From assembly GCA_041937175.2 (NCBI GenBank), contig CP166615.1, forward strand, positions 1,728,001 through 1,792,000: a stretch of 64,000 bases of DNA, given 5' to 3'. Below are positions 2,476 through 16,224 of this stretch, in pieces. Source of the stretch: Limnothrix sp. BL-A-16. Its GTDB lineage: Bacteria; Cyanobacteriota; Cyanobacteriia; CACIAM-69d. The notes under the pieces are model-generated. The model did no database searches. It was not told the DNA's origin and worked only from the letters and a program-made list of their open reading frames with translations. Numbering within the stretch: the first letter of the stretch is position 1; every line of letters begins with the position of its first letter. The translations under genes and the position numbers were made by a program.

Positions 2476-3828
2476 TCAAAGGGCAATTTCAGGGGTTGGC
2501 TCGCGCGATCGCAACTCCGACGGCCCCGAGTCGGTTCCAGGGGGCACAGGGGCCGGCGTTTCTTCCGAGGCCGAGTTGGCTTCCGGATTAGGCCAGGGAC
2601 TCGATCGCCGCCGCACATAGAGATAGGCCGTCATTCGGCCGCGTCCCTTCACCGGTAAATTAGACCAACGCTCAAACTCGTAATGATCCTTCAGGTAGGC
2701 ATAGGTTGCCTCGGTCACCTGAATTTTGCCGGGAATCCCCTGGGACTCCATTCGGCTAGCCACATTTACCGTGTCGCCCCAAAGGTCATAGCTAAATTTT
2801 TTGATGCCAATCACGCCGGCCACCACCGCCCCCGTGTTGATGCCAATTCGCAAGGCCAGGGGCAGCCCCGTTTCTCGCCGCAGTTGATTAATTTCCCGAC
2901 GCATGGCGATCGCCATTTCCATGATGGTGAGGGCATGGTCAGGCCGCGGCACGGGAATGCCGCCGGCCACCATGTAGGCATCCCCGATCGTTTTAATTTT
3001 TTCGAGGCCAAATTCTTCAGCTAATCGATCGAACGCCGAAAAAATTCGATTCAACAATTGCACCAACTCCAAAGGCGGCAACTGCACCGAAAGGGGCGTG
3101 AAATCCACAATATCGGCAAATAAAATCGTGGCTTCTTCAAACCGATCGGCGAGGATTTCGTTTTCCATCGCCAGCCCATCCCCCCTTGCCAGGCGATCGA
3201 CAATGGCTTGGGGCAACACATTCAACAGCAACTTTTGCGTGCGGCTTTGCTCCTCGCGCAGGGCCGATTCCATTTGCCGCCGCTCCCGCACTTCCCGATC
3301 GAGCAAAAAGAGCTGATCTTGCAATAACTCCGCCTGTCGTCGCAAACGCTTTTGCAAACTGGCGGCCAACAGGGCGGGCCCCCGAAACAACGTGAGATTG
3401 CGGGCCCGCTCATGGAGTCGATCGAGCCGACTACGATCCAAATGCAACCGAATGCGCGCCAAAGCCTCCGCCGGTTCCAAGGGCAACAGCAAATAGTCCG
3501 CCGCCCCCGCCGCAAACAACGCGCCCCGATCGAGTTGCCCCGCCGCCCCCACGAGCACGATCGGGGTGTTTTGGTAAGGGGCCGCCGATCGCAACTGATG
3601 GCACAGCTCCAAGGCCGCCAACTCCGGCCAAGACCCCACCAACACCAAAAGCGGCTGGAGCCGAGCGGCCGCCGCCATCAACTCATCCAAACTCGCGGGG
3701 CAATGGGCTTCGCACCCTAACTCCACCACCACCTGGGCCAAGGCCTGAGCCAACTCCCGATCGGCAATGCCAATCAGAATTGGGCTACCGGAGGCAACCA
3801 CAGCCGAGCTTGTCGTTGGAGCATTCAC
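2476..3828 (-). CDS. Adenylate/guanylate cyclase with N-terminal receiver-like domain
   Basis: Class III cyclase motifs LFADIVDFT, KIKTIGDAYM, YDLWGDTVNVASRMES; REC-like N-terminus (GAADYL). Start uncertain; GTG at 3828 chosen, ORF is open to 3927. Confidence 0.88.
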   Translation of the reverse strand: MNAPTTSSAVVASGSPILIGIADRELAQALAQVVVELGCEAHCPASLDELMAAAARLQPLLVLVGSWPELAALELCHQLRSAAPYQNTPIVLVGAAGQLDRGALFAAGAADYLLLPLEPAEALARIRLHLDRSRLDRLHERARNLTLFRGPALLAASLQKRLRRQAELLQDQLFLLDREVRERRQMESALREEQSRTQKLLLNVLPQAIVDRLARGDGLAMENEILADRFEEATILFADIVDFTPLSVQLPPLELVQLLNRIFSAFDRLAEEFGLEKIKTIGDAYMVAGGIPVPRPDHALTIMEMAIAMRREINQLRRETGLPLALRIGINTGAVVAGVIGIKKFSYDLWGDTVNVASRMESQGIPGKIQVTEATYAYLKDHYEFERWSNLPVKGRGRMTAYLYVRRRSSPWPNPEANSASEETPAPVPPGTDSGPSELRSREPTPEIAL

Positions 3829-4286
3829 AATAATCGCAGCGCCATGCGGCCGAAAACGATGCAGCCTGTCGTAACCATCAGTTACTAGGTAGGGGCTACA
3901 ACTCCGCACAGACCAAATCCGCCTCAAACCAGAGATTCAGAGGAAATTGCCCCCAAAATCCCGGTATTTCGTGGTCAAAATTCGGTAAATGATGACAACC
4001 GACCGCCACAGCGGCGATCGCCCCCCCAAAAGACAGACTGCGTGACAATACGCCGATTAAAGATGCACCAACGGTTTAGCTCCCTGAGGCCGCACTGTGG
4101 CATCAAGCAACCTTCAGCTCAGGGCTTTGAGCCAAAAGTATCTTGAGCCTTGAGCCAGCAACAAAGCTGCTGCGATCGTATCAAAATTCCCCCGAATCCA
4201 GGTTTCCTAGGCCCCACAAACCCCGGCCGGGCGATCGCAGGCTCCGTTGGCATAATGAGACCAACCGCGATCGTGAGGACTAACCG

Positions 4287-4994
4287 ATGATTGCCCAACC
4301 CACCCCCACTACGATCACGCCAGGGATTCAGCCCCCACCGATCGACTATCCCGACAGCGATGGCCAGCCCATGGCAGATAACACCAAGCAATTTCAATGG
4401 ATTCAGACCATTCAAAGCAATCTCGCCGCCATCTTTACCAACGATCCGCAAGTTTTTGTGGCGGGCGATCTGCTCTGGTATCCGGTGGAAGGGGACAACA
4501 AAACCCGCCAAGCGCCCGATGTGATGGTGGTGTTTGGGGTTTCCAAGGGCGATCGGGGTTCCTACAAGCAATGGTGTGAAAACAACATCGCGCCCCAAGT
4601 GGTATTTGAGATTTTGTCGCCGGGCAATCGCTTTGGGGAAATGCTGAAAAAGCAGGCGTTTTATGACACCTACGGCGTTGAGGAATATTACATCTACGAT
4701 CCGGATCGCCATGATTTGAGCATTTTGGGGCGATCGGAACGAGGCGATTTGCAGCTCCGGGGCGATCGCGCAGACGATTGGGTGAGTCCCCGGCTCGGGA
4801 TTCGGTTCCAAATGGGCGAAGACACCCTCACCCTGTTTCGGCCGGACGGTCAGCCCTTTTCCACCCTGGCGGAAGAAATCCAACGCACCGAACAAGAACG
4901 CCAACGAGCTGAGGAAGCAAACCAACGGGCCGATCGCCTGGCGGCCAAGCTACGGGAGTTGGGCATCGATCCCGAGGCGATCGAGTCGGATTGA
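4287..4994 (+). CDS. Uma2 family (DUF820) endonuclease-fold protein
   Basis: YPDSDGQPMADNTKQF, APDVMVVFG, VVFEILSPGN, YGVEEYYIYDP and a C-terminal coiled tail typical of cyanobacterial Uma2 proteins. Confidence 0.92.
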   Translation: MIAQPTPTTITPGIQPPPIDYPDSDGQPMADNTKQFQWIQTIQSNLAAIFTNDPQVFVAGDLLWYPVEGDNKTRQAPDVMVVFGVSKGDRGSYKQWCENNIAPQVVFEILSPGNRFGEMLKKQAFYDTYGVEEYYIYDPDRHDLSILGRSERGDLQLRGDRADDWVSPRLGIRFQMGEDTLTLFRPDGQPFSTLAEEIQRTEQERQRAEEANQRADRLAAKLRELGIDPEAIESD

Positions 4995-5008: not shown

Positions 5009-5341
5009 TTATCCAGCGGCGAAATCAGTCAGGCGGCGGCGATAGGGCGATTGAAAACCCAACACGATATCGGTTTTGGGAACACCGAGGGCGAGTAATT
5101 CGGTGGCGATACCCAGTTCGGTGCCATCGCGTTCAATCCAGATTTTGCCGTCCTGCAACGTGACGTAGATGATGCAGCCAAATACTCGCTTGGAACCATC
5201 CCAGCCGATGTGCAGCAGTTGGTAGCGATCGCGCTCGGTGTCAAAAATTAGTTGTAGGTCGGTTTCACCCCGGCTCAATCCTTTGGTGGTGTGCCGTTTC
5301 AGCACATCTTGAACCAGTTGGCTGTAGTTCATTCCTTCCAT
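5009..5341 (-). CDS. xisI: XisI family protein (no xisH partner adjacent)
   Basis: IFDTERDRYQLLHIGW...KIWIERDGTELGIATELLALGVPKTDIVLGF matches the XisI signature; start at Met 5341 or 5332. Confidence 0.88.
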   Translation of the reverse strand: MEGMNYSQLVQDVLKRHTTKGLSRGETDLQLIFDTERDRYQLLHIGWDGSKRVFGCIIYVTLQDGKIWIERDGTELGIATELLALGVPKTDIVLGFQSPYRRRLTDFAAG

Positions 5342-5361
5342 AGCAAGTTGGGCTGATTGGG

Positions 5362-5616
5362 TTACGGCGGGTCGGGGGTGATCCAATCCGTGAGCGATCG
5401 CCCCAGGTAGGCTTCCAAAAAGGCGCGGGCGGCAGCGGGTTCGATCGCCTCTAGGGCTGCCACGATCGCTGGAATTGCATCTGCCTGGGGATCTTGGGTT
5501 TCGTTGAACCAATAATGCACGGTCGATCGGGCAATGCCCATGGTGACGGCGAGCCGGTTTTGGCTGATGCCGTAGTCTTGCAACGTTTGTTTGAGTGCTT
5601 TTCCTGCTCGCGCCAT
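5362..5616 (-). CDS. XRE-family helix-turn-helix protein (84 aa)
   Basis: MARAGKALKQTLQDYGISQNRLAVTMGIARSTVHYW; ATG at 5616 within the longer 5362..5913 ORF. Confidence 0.85.
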   Translation of the reverse strand: MARAGKALKQTLQDYGISQNRLAVTMGIARSTVHYWFNETQDPQADAIPAIVAALEAIEPAAARAFLEAYLGRSLTDWITPDPP

Positions 5617-5629
5617 ATCCCTAATGATC

Positions 5630-5935
5630 TCAAAGGGGGGCTGATCGCCGTTGGGCGAGCCATTGATCGAACGATCGGGCGCTTTCGCCGCTGCGTTTGC
5701 CGGCCAGCAGTCCGGTGATGCCGATATGTTCGTCGAGGTCGGGCCATTCGATCGCGTAGCCGTCGCCGAGCAATTGCCAATTTTGGCGTTCGGCGGGGGT
5801 GGCTTGTTGCAGGCGGGGATACCAGTCGAGGGGAATGGTGAGTTGGCGACCGTCGGCGAGGTGAATGGTGAAGGTGCGATCGTCAAAATCGATTTGCTGG
5901 GCTTGGGGTTCAATCTCCAAGATCAAAGTAGTCAT
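5630..5935 (-). CDS. DUF2442 family protein (putative antitoxin)
   Basis: LADGRQLTIPLDWYPRLQQATPAERQNWQLLGDGYAIEWPDLDEHI; overlaps the end of the upstream DUF4160 gene. Confidence 0.85.
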   Translation of the reverse strand: MTTLILEIEPQAQQIDFDDRTFTIHLADGRQLTIPLDWYPRLQQATPAERQNWQLLGDGYAIEWPDLDEHIGITGLLAGKRSGESARSFDQWLAQRRSAPL

Positions 5936-6152
5936 GCCAGGCCTCAATCAGCTCGGGTTGGTGTTCTTGAACGAGTTTGAGAATGCGACTGATCTCGTGG
6001 TCAGCAAAGCCGAGGTTTTTGCTGGTTTCCACTGGATCGAGCCAAATCTTAATGAGTTGCCGATCGCGTTTGACGTGAATGTGGGGTGGTTCTCCTCGAT
6101 CGGAGCTGAAGAAGATGAAACTGTAGGGGCCGACTTGCAGAACGGTTGGCAT
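5910..6152 (-). CDS. DUF4160 family protein (putative toxin)
   Basis: MPTVLQVGPYSFIFFSSDRGEPPHIHVKR...LIEAWHDYF. Confidence 0.88.
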   Translation of the reverse strand: MPTVLQVGPYSFIFFSSDRGEPPHIHVKRDRQLIKIWLDPVETSKNLGFADHEISRILKLVQEHQPELIEAWHDYFDLGD

Positions 6153-6260: not shown

Positions 6261-6575
6261 TCAGAGTTTGGGAATGCTGAAGGCTGAATCCTCAAGGGTG
6301 GATGTGAGGTCAAGGGTGTGGGATGTCGCGGGGCAGGGTGTTCCATTGCGCCAAAGTTCGTATTCACTCAGGTCGATATCTTCATTCCAAACCAGCGCAT
6401 GACCGCCTATTTCAATGTGGAAGCTTTTAAAGAAGGCTGGATTTTTGAGGAGTTGAAACGGGGTTTTGGCTAATAGGGGTGTGATGTCATATTGTTTGAT
6501 CTCGTGATTGGAAAATTGAATAATTAATGTGTGGCTATTGAGAGCTTTGGCGGCGATGATTTTTAGAATAGTCAT
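6261..6575 (-). CDS. Second DUF2442-like protein
   Basis: LIIQFSNHEIKQYDITPLL...FQLLKNPAFF...LVWNEDIDLSEYELW; ATG at 6575. Confidence 0.78.
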   Translation of the reverse strand: MTILKIIAAKALNSHTLIIQFSNHEIKQYDITPLLAKTPFQLLKNPAFFKSFHIEIGGHALVWNEDIDLSEYELWRNGTPCPATSHTLDLTSTLEDSAFSIPKL

Positions 6576-6609
6576 GATCAATGCCGTAAAAACGGTTAAT
6601 TTCGGGCAT
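6535..6609 (-). pseudogene. Truncated DUF4160 remnant (MPEINRFYGI...)
   Basis: ATG 7 nt after the TPR stop gives MPEINRFYGI, the typical DUF4160 N-terminus; it then runs out of frame into the DUF2442 gene and stops after 24 codons. Confidence 0.6.
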
Positions 6610-6616
6610 GGATGAG

Positions 6617-9475
6617 CTATGGGGTGAGGTGGGATTGGAGCAGGTCGATCGCCCGGTGCAGGTCGGGGGTTTGGAGGGGCGATCGGGCGATCGCTTGGGA
6701 TGCTTCCAGCACGCCGCCGCGAATCGGCCACATTTCGTTAGGGTTGGGGAGGCTGGCGAGGGTCTGGGTGAGTTGCTCAAAACCGGCTTCGACGTTGCCC
6801 AACAGAATGGACAGGATCGACCAATGGAGTTTTTCTTGATCGTCTGAGTTGGGGCAGAGTTGCAGGCTTTCGGCTAGGAGCGATCGCGCCTGTTCCAAAT
6901 CTGATTGCAGGGCGCGAACGGCGGCCAAGTTAAAGGCCGGCATATAGTAATCGGGTTTGAGTTCTCTGGCTTTCAATAAATAGGCGCTGGCTTCGTCTAG
7001 GAGATCGCTAATTAGGCACAAAAAGCCGAGATTTCCTGGCAAATTGACATCGGTGGGGTCAAGTTCTGCTGCTTTTTGGAAAGTGGCGATCGCCCCAGCA
7101 ATATCCTCTTGCTCGAATTGCAGAATTGCTAAGGTGTAATAGGGCGAAGTAGACGTGTTATCGAGATCGAGATCAATCGCTCGTTGGTAAGCCTCAATTG
7201 CTTCCTCATAGCGTTCTTGGGCTTTTAGAACATCACCCAAATTGCTGAAATCAAAGGCGCGTTCTTCGATGCTGAGAGCTTGTCGATAAGCGGCTTCGGC
7301 TTCGGAATAGCGCTGAAGATTGTTGAGTGCCAAGCCCAGATTGCTGTGGGCATAGACATAGTTTGGGTCAAGCTCGATCGCCCGTTGGTAAGCAGCGATC
7401 ACCTCCTCATGCCGCTTCAGATCGCGATACGCATTACCCAAATTGTAATGATAGTCAGCATCGTTTGGGTCAAGCTCGATCGCCCGTTGGTAAGCAGCGA
7501 TTGCCTCTTCATAGCGCTCTAAATCGCGATACGCAGCACCCAATTCGTTGTGGGCATAGACAAAGTTTGGGTCAAGCTCGATCGCCCGTTGGTAAGCAGC
7601 GATCGCCTCCTCATACCGCTTCAGATTGTAGTACGCAAGACCCAAATTGTAATGGTGACCAGCATTGTTTGAGTCAAGCTCGATCGCCCGTTGAAAAGCA
7701 GAGATCGCCTCCTCATACTGCTTCAGATCGCCATACGCAAGACCCAAATTGTTGTGATAAATAGCTTCATTTGGATCAAGCTCGATCGCCCGTTGGTAAG
7801 CAGCGATCGCCTCCTCATACCGCTTCAGATCGCGATACGCATTACCCAATCTGTTGTGGGAATAGACAAAGTTTGGGTCAAGCTCGATCGCCCGCTGGTA
7901 AGCAGCGATTGCCTCCTCATACCGCTTCAGATCGCGATACGCATTACCCAATCCGTTGTGGGCATAGACAAAGTTTGGGTCAAGCTCGATCGCCCGTTGG
8001 TAAGCAGAGATCGCCTCCTCATACCGCTTCAGATTGTAGTACGCAAGACCCAAATTGTAATGGTGACCAGCATTGTTTGAGTCAAGCTCGATCGCCCGTT
8101 GGTAAGCAGCGATCGCCTCCTCATACCGCTTCAGATCGCGATACGCATTACCCAAATTGCCGTGGGCATAGACATAGTTTGAGTCAAGCTCGATCGCCTG
8201 TTGGTAAGCGGTGATCGCCTCTTCATATTGCTTCAGATCGCGATATATAAGACCCAAAATGTTGTAGCGATTTGCATTTGGCCCGATCTTGATCGCCCGC
8301 TGGAAAGCGTCAATTGCCTCCTCGTACCGCTCAAGATGCCATAGCGCATTGCCTTGGCGTGCCCAAATATAATCGTAGTTAGGCTTACGTTGAACAATAC
8401 GTATGAAGCGGCCAAACATCATTCTATACATTCTTGAGGCAGAAAGAAGATACTTATAACTTTGGAGGTTGGTTATCCGAAAATATTGATAGTAATTAGG
8501 CAGATTTTTGATATATTGAACACTATAGATGATTGCAGTTTTGTACCATTTCAAGTCAAACAAAAACTTATTTCGATTTCTAAAAGCATATTCAAAAACA
8601 TAGTGATACCTAGGTTCAAGCTCAGTGGCTCTTTGATAGATCATCACTGCTTCTTCATATCGACCAAGATGAAACAGTGCATCGCCTTGGGAAAAAGCTG
8701 CAAGATGGTTTTCTGGGTCAAGGTCGAGAACACGAGCAAAATTGATAATTGCTAGTCCATAATTTTGATTATATAAATTCAGTTGACCTGCTTGTAAATA
8801 AAGTTGACTTAACTGATCCGAGTCGCTTGTATTTTTGATTAGATCTTGCAGCTCTAGTAATCTTCTAATACATTCCAACTCTGTTAGTTTTTCATAGCCA
8901 TCTCCTGCCAATGACTCGTCAAGGATCTTTTGATCGATTTCTGATGGTTTTAGGGGAAAACGATAGACTCCCAGCCGCCAATCAAAAAAGTCCGGGGCGC
9001 GTTCGCTCAAATATTGAATCGTAGTGGGCCGACAGCAGACCACAAAGGCACAGGGAAACCGATCGCGCAAGGTTTCCCGCGCCCAATTGAGATGCTGCAA
9101 AATCGGCGGCACACCTCGCCAATCGACATTGTAAATTTGCACCTCGCTCCAGCCCGCCTGCCGCTTTGTGTCTTCATAATCCAACAGGGCTTCATCCAAA
9201 TCCCGCACAAACAACACATCAAATGCCGTCGTTTCTGCGAGAGCTTGCACCCGATCCAGCAATGTTGTGGCCTTGCGATCGAGCACCAATTGAGCAAACC
9301 GTTTTTCGGGAATTTCTCGCCGCAAGCGATCGAATAGCTCCTCATCCTTGTTGCGATCGCCCACTACAAAATGCAGCTCAAACCCCGTTTGCCGCTGGAG
9401 CGATCGCCGCAAATTCTGATAGATTTCCTCCGGTGTTTCCGGTAGCAAATCCTCCTCCTCATCCCAATCCATCAC
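6617..9475 (-). CDS. Large TPR protein with N-terminal degenerate NTPase-like domain (LNWARE...APDFFDW motif)
   Basis: 952-aa ORF with many 34-aa TPR units; N-terminal ~175 aa has alternating helix/strand character, a Walker-B-like VLFVRDLD and no Walker A. Confidence 0.88.
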   Translation of the reverse strand: MMDWDEEEDLLPETPEEIYQNLRRSLQRQTGFELHFVVGDRNKDEELFDRLRREIPEKRFAQLVLDRKATTLLDRVQALAETTAFDVLFVRDLDEALLDYEDTKRQAGWSEVQIYNVDWRGVPPILQHLNWARETLRDRFPCAFVVCCRPTTIQYLSERAPDFFDWRLGVYRFPLKPSEIDQKILDESLAGDGYEKLTELECIRRLLELQDLIKNTSDSDQLSQLYLQAGQLNLYNQNYGLAIINFARVLDLDPENHLAAFSQGDALFHLGRYEEAVMIYQRATELEPRYHYVFEYAFRNRNKFLFDLKWYKTAIIYSVQYIKNLPNYYQYFRITNLQSYKYLLSASRMYRMMFGRFIRIVQRKPNYDYIWARQGNALWHLERYEEAIDAFQRAIKIGPNANRYNILGLIYRDLKQYEEAITAYQQAIELDSNYVYAHGNLGNAYRDLKRYEEAIAAYQRAIELDSNNAGHHYNLGLAYYNLKRYEEAISAYQRAIELDPNFVYAHNGLGNAYRDLKRYEEAIAAYQRAIELDPNFVYSHNRLGNAYRDLKRYEEAIAAYQRAIELDPNEAIYHNNLGLAYGDLKQYEEAISAFQRAIELDSNNAGHHYNLGLAYYNLKRYEEAIAAYQRAIELDPNFVYAHNELGAAYRDLERYEEAIAAYQRAIELDPNDADYHYNLGNAYRDLKRHEEVIAAYQRAIELDPNYVYAHSNLGLALNNLQRYSEAEAAYRQALSIEERAFDFSNLGDVLKAQERYEEAIEAYQRAIDLDLDNTSTSPYYTLAILQFEQEDIAGAIATFQKAAELDPTDVNLPGNLGFLCLISDLLDEASAYLLKARELKPDYYMPAFNLAAVRALQSDLEQARSLLAESLQLCPNSDDQEKLHWSILSILLGNVEAGFEQLTQTLASLPNPNEMWPIRGGVLEASQAIARSPLQTPDLHRAIDLLQSHLTP
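7262..8281 (-). repeat. Tandem array of ten 102-bp TPR-coding repeats
   Basis: Near-identical units (...TCAAGCTCGATCGCCCGTTGGTAAGCAGCGATCGCCTCCTCATACCGCTTCAGAT...). The NYVYAH codons at 8179 and 7363 are exactly 8 x 102 bp apart. Confidence 0.95.
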
Positions 9476-10904
9476 CCATTCCCTCCCTCACCATTTGGCC
9501 CAGCCGCCCACGCTACAGACAGCAGCTCAGACAAGGGGCTTAAGCCCCTTGCCCCCGTGAGTTTGATGCTTGAAACGCATCCCAACGCTGCTTAAATTCC
9601 TTGGAACTCCGAATCAACGGATGCACCGCCGCCCAGGTGATTTTATCGTCGTTTTCCTCATCCCATTCGCGATATTCCAACACACACAATCGAAACAGCA
9701 AATTGCGACAGCGATCTTCACATTCGTTGCGGCTGTCCTTGTGTTGTTCCACAGCCATCAACGCTTCCCAATCCTCAAACCGGATTGCATCCATATAGGT
9801 TTCTCGCGCTTCGGTGATCGCCCGTTGCACCGTCTTCGAGCCGATCGGTAATGCATCCACCCGCTTCAACGATTCCTGCACCAATCGCATCAACTCGCGC
9901 ATGTGGCCACCGCTGGCCAAACACAATCGCTTCACGGCTTCTTCTTCCGCAAAAATATCAGGAACCAGCGATCGCCCGGGAGCCGCTTTGGCCACTCGCC
10001 GCGTCAACACATCGCGCAATTTCCCATAGCCATCGTCCAACATTTGATGATCCCGATCGGCGATCGCCACCATTGGCAACCGCTCCACCCCGTCATATTC
10101 ATCCCGCAACCGCGACGCACTCGCCGAAAAGACAAAGGACACGGGCGCTGTATAAATCATGTGGCAATTCAGGGCTTTTAGGGAATCAGCCCGATCGAGA
10201 AAAATTTCATCATGATTCGTGCGGCCATCGGGGCGATCGACCGGTGAAATCCGATCCAAGTTGTCCGCCATGACGACCAAATCGCGCTTGCCTGCGGGCA
10301 GTTTTTGGCGTGCATTGGCAATCAATTGATTGAGCGCCGCTTCCAAGCTTTCCGTTTGATCGCGCATCAATTTCCGCACTTGATCGCGCTTTTGGGGTTC
10401 CAATCGCACCGCCGTGGTCAGCTTGGCAAACTGACTGAGTTGCAGCTCCACATTGGTTTTCAGCTCATCAATTTTGATATCCGCTGAAAGGATCGTTTTC
10501 AGATCATCCATCGATTTGCTAATCCATTGGGCGATCGGCTGGGAATCGAGTCCTTCTAGGCTCTTGAGTCCGTCAATAATGTTGCGCGCACAGGCCAGCA
10601 AAATATCCGCATATTCCGTATCTTTCAGGTTCAAATCACCCGCATCGTCCGTCGCCGCTGCGAAATACACCACAAAAAAGCCGCGCTCTTCTAGCCACTG
10701 TTTCAGCTTTTTCAGTTCCGTGGATTTGCCGCCGCCGCGATGACCAGAATAGATTTGGCAGGTTTTGCGCTGGGCATCGGTAATCGTGCGGCCCAAGTCC
10801 ACGGTGATGTCATCGTCGCCCCGCACCGAGGTGCAATCCACATAGACCGGATCGCCCGGCTCCAGCGGCCGCGACGGATCGAACTCATGCTTGAGCTGGA
10901 CAAT

Positions 10905-11807
10905 AGACCTCTTGCACGAATCAAATTGGATGTGCCGCTTGGTAGTTGAGCAACCCAGCTAACAGATGGAGCCTCAAGCCAAAACGGCGACGACGATTGC
11001 GATAGCGTTCTGAGAAGATCCGAAATCGCTTCAAGCGACGAATGGCGTGCTCAATCCGAATGCGCACCGCCGCTAACGCCTGATTGCAAGCTTTTTCCTC
11101 GTCAGGCAGGCACTTTCGAGGTGGTTTCCGTTTCGGAAGGATCGTGGCTTCATGGTGACGAGCTAGCCCTTGATACCCACTATCCGCTAGACACAGCCGG
11201 TCTGGGGCTAGGCGAAACGCGCTCTCACGCCAAAGTCGCAGGTCATGGGTGCGACCTCGACCGATTGCCACCGCTAGGAATTGACCGGAGCGCCAATCAA
11301 TCACCAATTGCCCTTTCAACGTATGCCGCTTTTGCTTACCGCTGTAGTAAGCTCGCTGTTTTTTTTGGGCGTTCAATGGCGACTTCGGTCACATCAATCA
11401 CCACCACTGACTCGTCGGTTTCGGGGTCTAAGAGACGGCGTTTGCCGGGCAAGGCAAACCGACCACTTTTGACCAAGACGGTCTCAACACGGTTGATGAT
11501 CCGACAGACGGTGGCTTCTGAGACCCCGAAATCGAGACCGATGTGGAATTGGGTGCGATACTCGCGCCAGTATTGCAGGGTTAGCAGAAGCTGATTCTCA
11601 ACACTCAGACTATTTTGGCCCCCGCGTTTGCCACTCCGGTCTAGGGCGGGGCGGAGGACTTCCAGCATGGCTTGGAAGGTGGAGCGACTGAAGCCACAGG
11701 CACGGCGAAACTGTGATGGGGGCAGCGAGGCGAGGCTTTTGTAGAGCATCTCCCGATCAGGGTGACGACGACTTTCTACACTACTGCTTTATTCGTGCAA
11801 GAGGTCT
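10905..11807 (-). mobile_element. IS5-family insertion sequence (ISL2/IS702-like), 903 bp
   Basis: Perfect 17-bp TIRs AGACCTCTTGCACGAAT (10905-10921) / ATTCGTGCAAGAGGTCT (11791-11807); AAT target duplication at 10902-10904 and 11808-11810. Confidence 0.93.
10921..11749 (-). CDS. IS5-family DDE transposase in two overlapping frames (probable programmed frameshift)
   Basis: ORF-A 11336..11749 (LLLTLQYWREYRTQFHIG...VVIDVTEVAIERPKK) and ORF-B 10921..11376 (YYSGKQKRHTLK, LADSGYQG, RIRIEH), joined at an A8 run (T8 at 11359-11366 on + strand). Confidence 0.9.
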
Positions 11808-11885
11808 AATGATCGGAAATTCTGGGCTAAACACGTCAACGGCTACCAACACAACTCGCCCCGATTGTAGCCAAGTCGATCGCCC

Positions 11886-13472
11886 CTAGTGACCACCGGT
11901 TGTTGCTTGGCCCTTGCGGCCCTTGCCCAGCAACAACAACAGCGGCAACGAAGCCAAAAACACCATCCCCACCACCCAAAACGTATCGGCAAACGACAAA
12001 ATCGACGATTGCAAACTGAGAACGCGATCGAGCGAGGCGATCGCCTGTTGGTGCGCCGTGGTGGGGTCAATGCCGCGACCTTGAAACGCGCCGGTCAGGG
12101 CATCGAGCCGCCCTTGGGTTTCGGGGTTATACAGACTCAAGTGCTCACTCAACACACTGCGGTGAAACGCATTGCGCTGATCCAATAGCGTCGTCAAAAT
12201 CGCGATGCCAATGCTGCCGCCCAATTGCCGCGTCAGGTTATAAAACCCCGACCCGGCGGGAATGTCAGCCGGGGGCAACGAACCGAGGGTCGCCAAACTC
12301 AGGGGCAAAAACATCATCACCGTGCCCACCCCCCGAAAAATCAGCGGATAAAACAACGAATCGCTGCTGGAGTCGGGGTTGAGGGTCGCCAGGGAAAACA
12401 TCACGCCGCTGGTCATGACGCTGCCCGCCGCGATCGCCCAGCGGGGATCGATGAAACTGCTGACTTTGCCCAGGAGCATCATCGTGGCGGCGGAGGCCAG
12501 GGCCCCCGGCAACAGCAACAGGCCCGTTTGCTGGGCGGTGTAGTGCAACACGCTCTGGGCAAAAATCGGCACGGCGAACAAGGTTCCATACAGCCCCATG
12601 CCCACCACGGCGGAATAGACACTGCCCGCCGCAAGCGATCGATGGCGCAACACGCGCAAGTCCACGGCCGGGTGGCGCACGGTCAGTTCCCGCCAAATAA
12701 ACAGGGCTAGCCCAACGATCGCGGCGATCGCCAGGACGATGATCGTGGGCGATTCAAACCAGTTGTCCTGCTCCCCTTCTTCCAGGAAGGTTTGCAAGCT
12801 GCCCACGGCGATCGTTAGCAGGGCAATCCCCCACCAATCAACCGATCGACGTGGGCCGGAGCGATCGGGCGGGCGATCGGCGGGCAAAAACAGCAGGGCC
12901 ATCACCACCGCCGCGATGCCGAAGGGAATATTAATGAAGAAAATCCAGCGCCACCCGAGGGTATCGGTCAAATAGCCGCCGAGGGTCGGGCCGATCGCCG
13001 GGCCCGTAATCACGCCGACCCCGAAGACCGCTTGGGCCAGGCCCTGTTCGGCGGGCGGAAAGCTCTGAAACAAAATCGATTGGGCCTTGGCCAGCAAGCC
13101 GCCCCCCAGCAACCCTTGCAAGATTCGGGCGGCCACCAGCTCGGTCAAACTGCCGGACAGGCCGCAGAGGATCGAGGCGATCGTGAAGCCCGCCAGCGAG
13201 AGGACGAAATAGCGCTTTTGGCCAAAGGTTTCGCCCAGCCAAGCCGTCAGGGGAATCACGATCACGTTGGCGATCGCGTAGCCCGTGACGATCCAGCCAA
13301 TTTCGCTGAGGGTGGCCCCGACGCTGGATTGGATATCGGTCAGGGCGACGTTGACGATGCTGGTGTCGATCACTTCCAGGATTGCGCCTAGGGAAGCGGT
13401 GGCGGCGATCGCCCATTTCACCCAGCCGGTGGGATAGGCCGGGGCGATCGCGGGATGGGAGGTTGCACTCAT
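11886..13472 (-). CDS. emrB: DHA2-family MFS efflux permease (EmrB/QacA-like)
   Basis: LEVIDTSIVNVAL, WIVTGY, GPAIGPTLGGYL, WRWIFFINIP, VDWWG motifs; many TM helices. Confidence 0.9.
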   Translation of the reverse strand: MSATSHPAIAPAYPTGWVKWAIAATASLGAILEVIDTSIVNVALTDIQSSVGATLSEIGWIVTGYAIANVIVIPLTAWLGETFGQKRYFVLSLAGFTIASILCGLSGSLTELVAARILQGLLGGGLLAKAQSILFQSFPPAEQGLAQAVFGVGVITGPAIGPTLGGYLTDTLGWRWIFFINIPFGIAAVVMALLFLPADRPPDRSGPRRSVDWWGIALLTIAVGSLQTFLEEGEQDNWFESPTIIVLAIAAIVGLALFIWRELTVRHPAVDLRVLRHRSLAAGSVYSAVVGMGLYGTLFAVPIFAQSVLHYTAQQTGLLLLPGALASAATMMLLGKVSSFIDPRWAIAAGSVMTSGVMFSLATLNPDSSSDSLFYPLIFRGVGTVMMFLPLSLATLGSLPPADIPAGSGFYNLTRQLGGSIGIAILTTLLDQRNAFHRSVLSEHLSLYNPETQGRLDALTGAFQGRGIDPTTAHQQAIASLDRVLSLQSSILSFADTFWVVGMVFLASLPLLLLLGKGRKGQATTGGH

Positions 13473-15636: not shown

Positions 15637-16224
15637 ATGCCGCCGATCCTTGCTGAAGCCCTAACCCTGCGACCGCTGCAAGTGCGCGATTATCAATGCC
15701 TGATTGATCAGGGTTGTTTTGGCCCGGAAGAACATATTGAATTGCTCAATGGTCAACTGATTCAAATGGCTGCTAAGGAAACCCGCCATGCCGCCGCTGT
15801 CAGTCGTTTGGCGCGGCTGCTGGGTCGGCAATTGGGCGAAACGGTGCTGATTCGGCTGCAAGACCCGATCGCCCTGAATGATCAGTCCCAACCTGAACCC
15901 GACCTGGCGATCATCCGGCCCCATCCCCTCGACTATGCCGACCATCACCCCACCCCAGCGGAAATCCATTGGCTGATTGAAGTGGCGGATAGCACCCTCA
16001 CCTACAACACCCAAACCAAGGCCCGTGCCTATGCCCAAGCGGGTTTAGGGGATTATTGGGTGCTGGATTTACCGGGCGATCGGCTCTGGGTGTTCCGCAA
16101 TCCGAACCAGGCGGGCTATGGACTGGTTATGCAGCTCGATCGCGCCCAATCGATCGCCCCGATCGCCTTTCCGAATTGCACTTGGCCCCTGGCGGACTTG
16201 CTGCCGATCGCCTCGGACTCTTGA
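15637..16224 (+). CDS. Uma2 family endonuclease-fold protein
   Basis: IELLNGQL, QPEPDL, LIEVADSTL, KARAYAQAG..DYWVLDL. Confidence 0.9.
   Translation: MPPILAEALTLRPLQVRDYQCLIDQGCFGPEEHIELLNGQLIQMAAKETRHAAAVSRLARLLGRQLGETVLIRLQDPIALNDQSQPEPDLAIIRPHPLDYADHHPTPAEIHWLIEVADSTLTYNTQTKARAYAQAGLGDYWVLDLPGDRLWVFRNPNQAGYGLVMQLDRAQSIAPIAFPNCTWPLADLLPIASDS

Follow-up and report, generated by a model that had tools for sequence, protein, structure and literature searches.

The window analysed here, 64,000 nt of the Limnothrix sp. BL-A-16 genome (contig CP166615.1, positions 1,728,001 to 1,792,000), contains a gene for a 952-aa tetratricopeptide repeat (TPR) protein (6617-9475, minus strand) lying directly downstream of a gene for an ATPase that an insertion sequence (IS) has split. 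The N-terminal ~190 aa of the TPR protein (8906-9475), which we call X, define a large protein family that has no entry in Pfam, NCBIfam or PADLOC and are predicted to form a degenerate AAA+ nucleotide-binding domain whose own nucleotide site has been lost. The pair of ATPase and X genes is widespread and has the look of a hitherto undescribed component of immune-like signalling in bacteria. In it X would quite possibly, though we stop short of calling it probable, serve as an adaptor, a pseudo-protomer through which the ATPase docks onto sensor scaffolds, the ATPase itself being a threshold or output element.

Domain X and its partner ATPase

For residues 1-190 of the TPR protein, Pfam searched at E <= 10 gave noise alone (RpoY 0.02, F420_ligase 0.15), NCBIfam gave nothing for four of five sequences and noise for the other, and PADLOC gave nothing for all five. 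A profile built on an alignment of 55 X sequences (A2) reaches 3303 representative clusters at E <= 0.001, 1739 at E <= 1e-10 and 244 at 1e-30, and among the best 150 of its matches listed the start falls almost always within the first 30 residues; against the sequences of solved structures the best E of the profile is 0.043.

The structural model of X (pLDDT 87.8) has five strands, each preceded by one helix except strand 4, which two helices precede, and in an unbiased VIA structural search against 48,161 chains all 50 best rows are AAA+/STAND modules, with the row at rank 50 still at Z 8.4. TnsC occupies the top row (Z 11.1, root-mean-square deviation (rmsd) 3.7, 150 of 190 residues aligned), and an ORC subunit (Z 10.2, rmsd 3.3, 137 aligned), Elg1-RFC (Z 9.9) and Cdc6/Orc1 (Z 9.9) are also found; RFC, Pol III gamma-related, Hda and ORC chains are all among the fold matches. 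Across the 55 aligned sequences X has no Walker A motif (GxxxxGK[ST]), the loop after strand 1 being short and devoid of a conserved Lys, Ser or Thr, while strand 3 ends in G-L-E, in which the Glu alone is conserved, rather than in the hhhhDE of a canonical Walker B; it is on account of the absent Walker A and the non-canonical Walker B that we call X degenerate. In the window's copy a hydrophobic strand ending in an acidic residue is followed by LNWARE...APDFFDW, and the corresponding family motif, R-A-P-D-F-F-D-W, contains the best-conserved stretch of the domain (R-A-P-D-F-x-D-W, with D162 invariant). It is found where helix 4 ends, ahead of strand 5, a position that we take to be the arginine finger (Box VII) site of AAA+ proteins. 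The initial annotation, made from the sequence of the window, had suspected a degenerate NTPase at this end of the TPR protein, and the model and the VIA search bear out a P-loop-derived domain, namely an AAA+ fold without Walker A.

The ATPase carries Walker A (GHRGGGKST), Walker B (VVMADNLDR) and lid (SGGHMR) motifs followed by a C-terminal winged helix. Residues G33, G36, G38, K39, T41, D193, D196, T231, R282, G311-G312-R315 and R346 are invariant in 34 aligned ATPases, D193 and D196 belonging to hhhhDNLD and G311-G312-R315 to the SGGHxR lid motif. A word-indexed search in which 7999 candidates were scored returned 654 proteins at E <= 0.001, mostly cyanobacterial, and the family is present at 569 loci in the reference genome collection. 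At E <= 0.01 Pfam offers AAA_30, AAA_16, KAP_NTPase, AAA_22 and Pox_A6 alone, all under their cut-offs (AAA_30 at 22.4 bits against 27, AAA_16 at 20 against 32.6, KAP_NTPase (PF07693) at 17.3 against 20), and no NB-ARC, NACHT or nSTAND match, with PF01637 likewise unlisted; against solved-structure sequences the ATPase profile matches P-loop stretches alone (SRP receptor at 7.8e-6, clamp loader at about 0.01). With KAP (PF07693), AAA_16 (PF13191) and ATPase_2 (PF01637) the enzyme shares weak matches and a long insert between Walker A and Walker B; it differs from them in scoring below the curated cut-offs and in that the insert is modelled as a soluble helical hairpin. Distant kinship with KAP proteins stays possible, since 15-95% of the members of the clusters that resemble the ATPase carry PF07693.

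In the structural model of the ATPase (pLDDT 88.4, pTM 0.86) an AAA+ core is joined by the hairpin insert, which is long and lies between strands 2 and 3, by a lid, and by a winged helix in the form of a C-terminal helix-strand-strand-helix unit. Structural alignment places it near TnsC (Z 15.0, rmsd 4.1, 279 residues aligned), Cdc6/Orc1 (Z 14.2, rmsd 4.8, 249 aligned), CED-4 (Z 13.6, rmsd 5.2, 284 aligned), NRC4 (Z 13.6, rmsd 5.7, 289 aligned) and the archaeal ATPase_2 structures 2qen and 2fna (Z 13.4 each), which together span little more than one Z unit; the alignments to CED-4 and NRC4 extend to residues 430-433. The ATPase has the P-loop core of the STAND class and its succession of nucleotide-binding domain (NBD), lid and winged helix, yet it cannot be placed in STAND proper because the Z scores of the AAA+ clades are nearly equal. 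To judge by the model, it is an ORC/STAND-like AAA+ NTPase for which the STAND type and the ORC/Cdc6/TnsC type are structurally indistinguishable; motifs and model together suggest an active enzyme related to the ORC/Cdc6, TnsC, STAND and KAP-like families. The label "STAND-type" proposed in the initial annotation fits the domain layout, but no STAND family model matches and the structure does not set the enzyme apart from the ORC/Cdc6/TnsC type.

The two genes travel together. We collected 80 ATPase loci from other genomes, the best of the 569 and rich in Nostocales; six of them end within 323 nt after the ATPase gene, and in 71 of the remaining 74, which are testable, an X gene follows directly downstream on the same strand, a frequency from which we conclude that the adjacency is not due to chance. 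The intervening gap (n = 71) is at most 10 nt in 43 loci, 11-100 nt in 9, 101-700 nt in 18 and 2435 nt in one, and the exceptions are L035, in which a longer ATPase precedes a coiled-coil ORF (open reading frame), L084, with nothing downstream, and L062, to which we return below. Among 31 related genomes the ATPase (E <= 1e-10, with a single protein as query) and X (E <= 1e-5) are found in the identical 19 and neither is found in the other 12, of which 11 are at least 96% complete and one (G014) 93%; the number of matches per genome ranges from 0 to about 9-10. In the same genomes an ATPase match immediately precedes 46 of the 76 X matches, and X follows 46 of the 58 ATPase matches. The expectation that the two genes co-occur is therefore borne out at both levels, in the 71 of 74 loci and in the same 19 of 31 genomes.

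The Limnothrix genome itself holds three paralogous pairs: that of the window, with X fused to TPRs, a second in which a 439-aa ATPase gene overlaps by 1 nt the gene for a 689-aa X-TPR_12 protein, and a third in which a 444-aa ATPase (paralogue 2) is followed by a 163-aa stand-alone X. Subtypes of the two partners match, in that ATPases 33-35% identical to that of the window adjoin short X domains without insert. Two further arrangements were observed in passing. In three Nostocales loci (L032, L049 and L078) a single ATPase gene stands between two X genes, one ~3 kb upstream that encodes an X-TPR protein of about 525-535 aa and one immediately downstream that encodes X alone (about 190-210 aa). 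At L006:3-5678 (minus strand) an ORF of more than 1892 aa lies directly downstream of ATPase paralogue 2 and its stand-alone X; by eye its C-terminal parts resemble a histidine kinase, and it shows a Ser/Thr-kinase motif and a P-loop of the form GxxGxGKT.

A physical association of the two proteins, which the initial annotation had proposed as separate subunits of one complex, is supported by modelling: the predicted complex of ATPase and X reaches an ipSAE of 0.68 (0.68, 0.65 and 0.69 in separate runs), compared with 0.00 for the best of three controls, and so passes them, with a contact agreement between runs of at least 73% and a partner pLDDT of at least 76. That mark is reached by 116 of 157 solved complexes and by two of 215 mismatched pairs, a calibration that holds just roughly because purpose-built alignments were used. 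On the side of X, the predicted interface comprises the N-terminal helices (4-28) and residues 150-172, that is, helix 4 and the APDFxDW loop, including P161, D162, D165 and R167; on the side of the ATPase it comprises R35-G36 of the P-loop, the lid (304-352, with the invariant R315 and R346) and parts of the winged helix (383-385 and 408-417). Faces of opposite charge would thereby meet, D162 and D165 of X facing R35, R315, R340 and R346 of the ATPase, all of which are invariant or near-invariant.

Architectures behind X and an effector-slot fusion

Seventy-four X ORFs were recovered from the 80 loci, 13 cut by a contig end and 61 complete. In 51 of the complete proteins X is followed by 2-15 TPR units, as counted with an ad hoc hidden Markov model built from the window's own repeats, and by no other NTPase; four consist of X alone (about 190-220 aa), five have a Walker A of their own further on and one (L087) ends in a tail of no assigned family. 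Pfam reads the five as X-TPR-NACHT-HEAT (L076), X-nSTAND1-WD40 (L081, L083 and L085) and X-TPR_12-nSTAND1 (L086), and one database match of X, P0149, is named a CHAT-domain protein by its source. X thus occupies the N-terminal place where NLR-like proteins carry an adaptor or effector, and the variable C-termini anticipated in the initial annotation are indeed found, be they TPR units in varying number, WD40, HEAT, STAND or none.

X also occurs away from the ATPase gene. Of the 76 X matches in the 31 genomes, 26 lie in open frames of at least 1200 aa, and the two such proteins that were scanned are both X-nSTAND1-WD40 with no ATPase gene adjoining. One of them, of 1723 aa, belongs to the Limnothrix genome (L095:4890-10058, about 550.9-556.1 kb on G000:C1), and its X is closest to the stand-alone X beside ATPase paralogue 2 (81 bits, against 64 and 17 for the genome's other two copies). 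Dispersed X-bearing sensors of this kind may couple to one ATPase in trans. Between X and nSTAND1 of the Limnothrix protein we also noted ~350 residues without assignment among the families shown.

The repeats themselves vary between close relatives. The TPR array of the window (6617-8905, minus strand; Pfam TPR_1, with 14 TPR_1 stretches in the whole protein) contains, at 7335-8245, 8.9 tandem copies of a 102-nt unit (82% matches), and the orthologous open frame measures 956, 723 and 426 aa in three close genomes, being 956 aa here and 723 aa in the same-genus genome G002. Positions 7150-8648 of the window do not align to G002 (L093; blastn, E <= 1e-10), while both flanks align at 83-94%. The array of the window is a recently expanded one.

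The exceptional locus L062 (L062:1184-7323), from a Nostoc metagenome-assembled genome, has no X gene. Its ATPase is the C-terminal part of a 716-aa protein, and the genes ahead of this fusion encode a CHAT protein (with a weak EAD9 match), an iSTAND protein (PF19995, E 1.1e-32), a MoxR-type AAA_5 protein and a CoxE-type vWA protein. The N-terminal domain of the fusion (235 aa) is found again directly after iSTAND-MoxR-vWA in all 12 further loci fetched, as a separate gene in nine and fused to the vWA protein in three, and the nine separate genes carry pentapeptide repeats (four of them) or an FHA, FGE-sulfatase, SBP_bac_3, PG_binding_1 or OprB-like piece. Section 6 of Kaur et al. (PMC8195603) describes, for ternary systems, a vWA-L linker joined to a variable effector, and by that description the 235-aa domain matches the layout. 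The ATPase of L062 accordingly sits in the effector slot of an iSTAND-MoxR-vWA system; the lack of an X gene there fits a role of X as the non-covalent tether used elsewhere.

The copy in the window and its surroundings

The genes, the motifs, the 64-bp gap and the same-strand downstream genes described in the initial annotation are all present, on the minus strand. The locus begins behind a major facilitator superfamily (MFS) transporter gene (11886-13472, minus) with a 5' fragment of the ATPase gene (11808-11852, minus) that comprises the GTG start and 15 codons, read by eye, before the frame is severed near codon 15 by a 903-bp IS5-family element (10905-11807, minus). The remainder of the ATPase gene (9540-10904, minus) continues in frame from the IS edge to a stop at 9540. 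The annotated length of ~462 aa and end coordinate of 11852 fit this arrangement, in that the 15-codon fragment matches the N-termini of intact homologues of 462-468 aa (P0001-P0004). From the IS edge the frame is open to a GTG at 10841, but it offers no ATG, GTG or TTG in between; the usable ORF (9540-10841, minus) therefore encodes 433 aa. The IS has cost the gene its promoter and, up to the GTG at 10841, 29 residues, and the ATPase copy in this genome is probably inactive.

The IS insertion is recent. The element has 24-nt inverted repeats (10901-10924 and 11788-11811), and its two overlapping transposase ORFs (11336-11749 and 10921-11376) match HTH_Tnp_4, DDE_Tnp_4 and DDE_Tnp_1 in Pfam and cover NF033581 in two halves; their overlap at a run of eight A suggests that transposase expression depends on a frameshift. 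The 4.56-Mb genome contains five copies at about 100% identity, four at 91% and one fragment. In G002, which aligns to the upstream flank from 11808 onward, the IS flanks abut with a 3-nt overlap, corresponding to an empty site with its target triplet, and the 3-bp target duplication has one of its copies at 11808-11810. A contig from a freshwater metagenome (run X1) likewise joins 10901 to 11808 without the IS.

A spacer of 64 nt separates the ATPase stop (9540) from the TPR start (9475, minus), and a perfect 20-nt palindrome (9532-9551, without strand; CAAGGGGCTTAAGCCCCTTG) spans the ATPase stop codon. Further copies lie at 39325, 44432, 51176, 54930 and 59195, giving six in the window at no more than two mismatches, against 0 expected, and the palindrome looks like a dispersed hairpin element of the repetitive extragenic palindromic (REP) kind. 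All four metagenome and metatranscriptome runs consist of contigs, and in all four the bin holding the palindrome (9528-9631, contig pieces 9528-9561) has a depth of 28-811, far above the neighbouring bins. Coverage by the RNA runs is confined to the palindrome, the IS and, in the X region, a single piece of 181 nt showing 16 differences; with coverage so restricted they are uninformative on expression of the locus.

Downstream of the TPR gene, on the minus strand, lie a DUF2442 gene (6261-6731), a DUF4160 gene (5910-6152), a second DUF2442 gene (5630-5947), an HTH_3 domain within 5362-5913 and an XisI gene (5009-5512). The initial annotation had these small genes as a possible route of output, an idea that the wider family does not support: in phmmer searches with the window proteins as queries, relatives of DUF2442, DUF4160 and XisI were found in 0 of the 80 other loci, HTH in one and Uma2 in three. 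Linkage to a defence island is likewise unsupported, the neighbours of the pair in the window being an efflux pump with MarR, two cyclases, Uma2 genes and transporters, among which no MoxR or vWA genes occur; the window's copy has no defence-island context. The Uma2-family genes, of a putative restriction endonuclease fold, flank the region on either side (4287-4994 and 15637-16224), and the adenylate/guanylate cyclase genes are at 2476-3927 and 28660-30243. No PADLOC model, Avs included, was matched above noise by the ATPase or X, the ATPase giving a weak, sub-threshold match to PDC-S20 (E 7e-4, 17 bits) and its relatives reaching E 3e-6 at best. Clustering of 621 flanking ORFs from the 80 loci yielded no third conserved gene and local synteny groups alone (16, 11, 8 and 8 loci); in the largest group the same gene, which has a radical-SAM-like CxxxCxxC motif and which by eye resembles the FO synthase CofG, lies directly upstream of the pair.

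Known systems and competing readings

X keeps a conserved face, which consists of the last part of helix alpha4 together with the APDFxDW loop in front of beta5. If X acts as an adaptor, a reading that we entertain as quite possible without regarding it as established, it would dock with this face as a pseudo-protomer on the lid, the winged helix and the P-loop side of the ATPase. The docked X would then tether the ATPase to whatever is fused behind it, the TPR array in this genome and nSTAND1-WD40, NACHT-HEAT, TPR-CHAT or nothing elsewhere. By binding ligand or by clustering, the sensor scaffold would govern the co-assembly of the ATPase, a step dependent on ATP, and the ATPase would set the threshold or provide the output in a conflict or signalling system of the NLR kind. 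The conserved pairing, the AAA+ fold of X and its missing Walker A, the varied fusions and the break by the IS are shown, and binding and its interface are supported by a model. We infer the direction of signalling, the conflict role and the action of the assembled ATPase, as we do the immune role of the pair as a whole.

Several observations weigh against this adaptor reading. The pair is undescribed in the full-text literature searched, which includes parts of PMC7159879 and PMC8195603, while the supplementary source-data tables lie outside that coverage and may list members. No known defence genes were found near the window's copy, and the same housekeeping-looking gene upstream in 16 of the 80 loci points to a stable chromosomal site rather than a mobile island. 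The 80 loci are not independent, being the best matches among 569 and rich in Nostocales. No adjacent partner accompanies 30 of the 76 X matches and 12 of the 58 ATPase matches, at least four of the latter 12 lying at a contig end; 51 of the 61 complete X proteins have no enzymatic effector; and fusion of the ATPase into the effector slot was seen in one locus of the 80. As to X itself, the best Foldseek E is 1.8e-3, with no match at E <= 0.001, for which reason the AAA+ fold call rests on the VIA search, and no sequence homology between X and the ATPase was detected (hhalign probability 0.15). Conservation is not enriched at the predicted interface either, with 0.56 against 0.55 for X and 0.64 against 0.62 for the ATPase (interface against rest).

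Among systems already described, the closest precedent is the nSTAND2 operon, in which an active STAND is paired with an eroded one (Kaur, Iyer, Burroughs & Aravind 2021, eLife, PMC8195603, section 15). As that section presents it, the likeness lies in two adjacent STAND/AAA+-type genes, one with its NTP site intact and one with it eroded, in an eroded partner that bears the variable part and in a predicted hetero-oligomer. The logic is shared, not the families, the effectors or the size of the inactive partner: both nSTAND2 proteins, as described there, are of one family and the inactive one bears GT4 or HEPN effectors, whereas X has no detectable homology to its partner, consists of a ~190-aa core without lid or winged helix, bears repeat arrays or whole STAND modules rather than enzymes, and matched no nSTAND model. 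A second comparison is with iSTAND and iSTAND2, the third components of MoxR-vWA ternary systems (Kaur et al. 2020, PMC7159879; 2021, PMC8195603). In the parts of those papers concerned, a conflict system of multicellular cyanobacteria likewise makes use of an inactive STAND/AAA+ module that has no catalytic role, and one relative of our ATPase, that of L062, is physically part of such a system; X, however, has no match to the Pfam iSTAND family (PF19995) at E <= 10, no MoxR or vWA gene lies near it in the window, and its partner is an AAA+/KAP-like ATPase rather than MoxR.

Protomers without ATP binding are also familiar from replication machines, in which clamp-loader delta-prime beside gamma, and certain ORC subunits, flank an active protomer and lend a face to the neighbour's site. 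Those machines have a fixed stoichiometry, whereas X is an N-terminal module on signalling scaffolds and would, according to the complex model, offer mainly acidic residues (D162 and D165) instead of an arginine finger. Avs and bNACHT, finally, are single-chain bacterial NLR-like sensors that combine an NTPase with a repeat sensor whose repeats are variable; here the ATPase and the sensor are separate proteins with X between them, and most copies have no effector domain.

The arrangement could alternatively be a split NLR, the ATPase being the nucleotide-binding oligomerization domain (NOD) switch of the TPR receptor, X an inactive partner protomer and the output either oligomerisation or an unlinked effector, as the initial annotation had it; the pair would then function like one STAND-TPR chain divided between two genes. 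We regard this as conceivable and rather doubtful. The STAND/ORC layout of NBD, lid and winged helix in the ATPase and its alignments to CED-4 and NRC4 as far as residues 430-433 speak for it, as do the predominance of X plus TPRs without another NTPase (51 of 61), the tight coupling of the genes, the support for binding from the complex model and the precedent of an active plus an eroded STAND in the nSTAND2 operon as given in PMC8195603. Yet X also precedes complete nSTAND1 and NACHT modules, where a second switch would be unneeded; ATPase and stand-alone X occur as pairs without any sensor (four of the 61 complete X proteins and our own paralogue 2); in L062 the ATPase takes the place otherwise occupied by variable effector modules; and no model of a STAND family was matched. 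The ATPase as NOD of the TPR sensor is one reading among others, and since X is N-terminal on complete STANDs and the ATPase of L062 lies in the effector slot, an adaptor X with a recruited ATPase fits better. A more specific version of the adaptor reading, to which we give no more than guarded credence, would have X nucleate the dedicated free AAA+ ATPase into an oligomer when an NLR-like sensor clusters, with the oligomer, possibly on DNA as for TnsC, MuB and ORC, as the output, acting both in cis, through the adjacent gene, and in trans, from dispersed X sensors to one ATPase.

An unlikely but not negligible explanation is a housekeeping or regulatory pair, in which the ATPase would be an ATP-dependent assembly or remodelling factor and its TPR or WD40 partner the scaffold of a cyanobacterial complex; TPR and WD40 scaffolds are common in assembly factors, and the conserved position behind one housekeeping-looking gene in 16 of the 80 loci, the lack of defence neighbours, the weak, sub-threshold PADLOC matches and the scarcity of enzymatic effectors among the partners would all suit it. 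Such a role is harder to reconcile with a pair that is not found in 12 of the 31 related genomes (11 at least 96% complete, G014 93%) and is multi-copy in others, up to 9-10 matches, with repeat arrays whose length varies between close genomes and that hold recent tandem copies, with a window copy broken by an IS while the copy of a same-genus genome is intact, and with fusions of X to nSTAND1, NACHT and CHAT and of the ATPase inside an iSTAND ternary system. That the two genes are chance neighbours, X being an ordinary flavodoxin-like or Rossmann-like N-terminal domain without a tie to the ATPase, is a suggestion to which the weak Foldseek E and the undetected homology lend some colour; we consider it highly improbable, for it is contradicted by the co-occurrence (71 of 74 loci, and identical presence and absence across the 31 genomes) and is at odds with the 50 best VIA rows, all AAA+, and with a complex score of 0.68 against 0.00.

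These findings bear on how repeat proteins of cyanobacteria are read. X stands almost always at the N-terminus, the position of the effector or adaptor in NLR-like proteins, and the family of the ATPase encoded next to it is equally unnamed. If X docks that ATPase, many cyanobacterial TPR and WD40 repeat proteins could be read as sensors wired to one ATP-driven output, and the pairing of an active with an eroded NTPase, as in nSTAND2, iSTAND, ORC and the clamp loaders, would extend to a minimal adaptor; should the ATPase in addition be nucleated into an oligomer by clustered sensors, the system would constitute an AAA+-based counterpart of Death-fold or TIR adaptor signalling.

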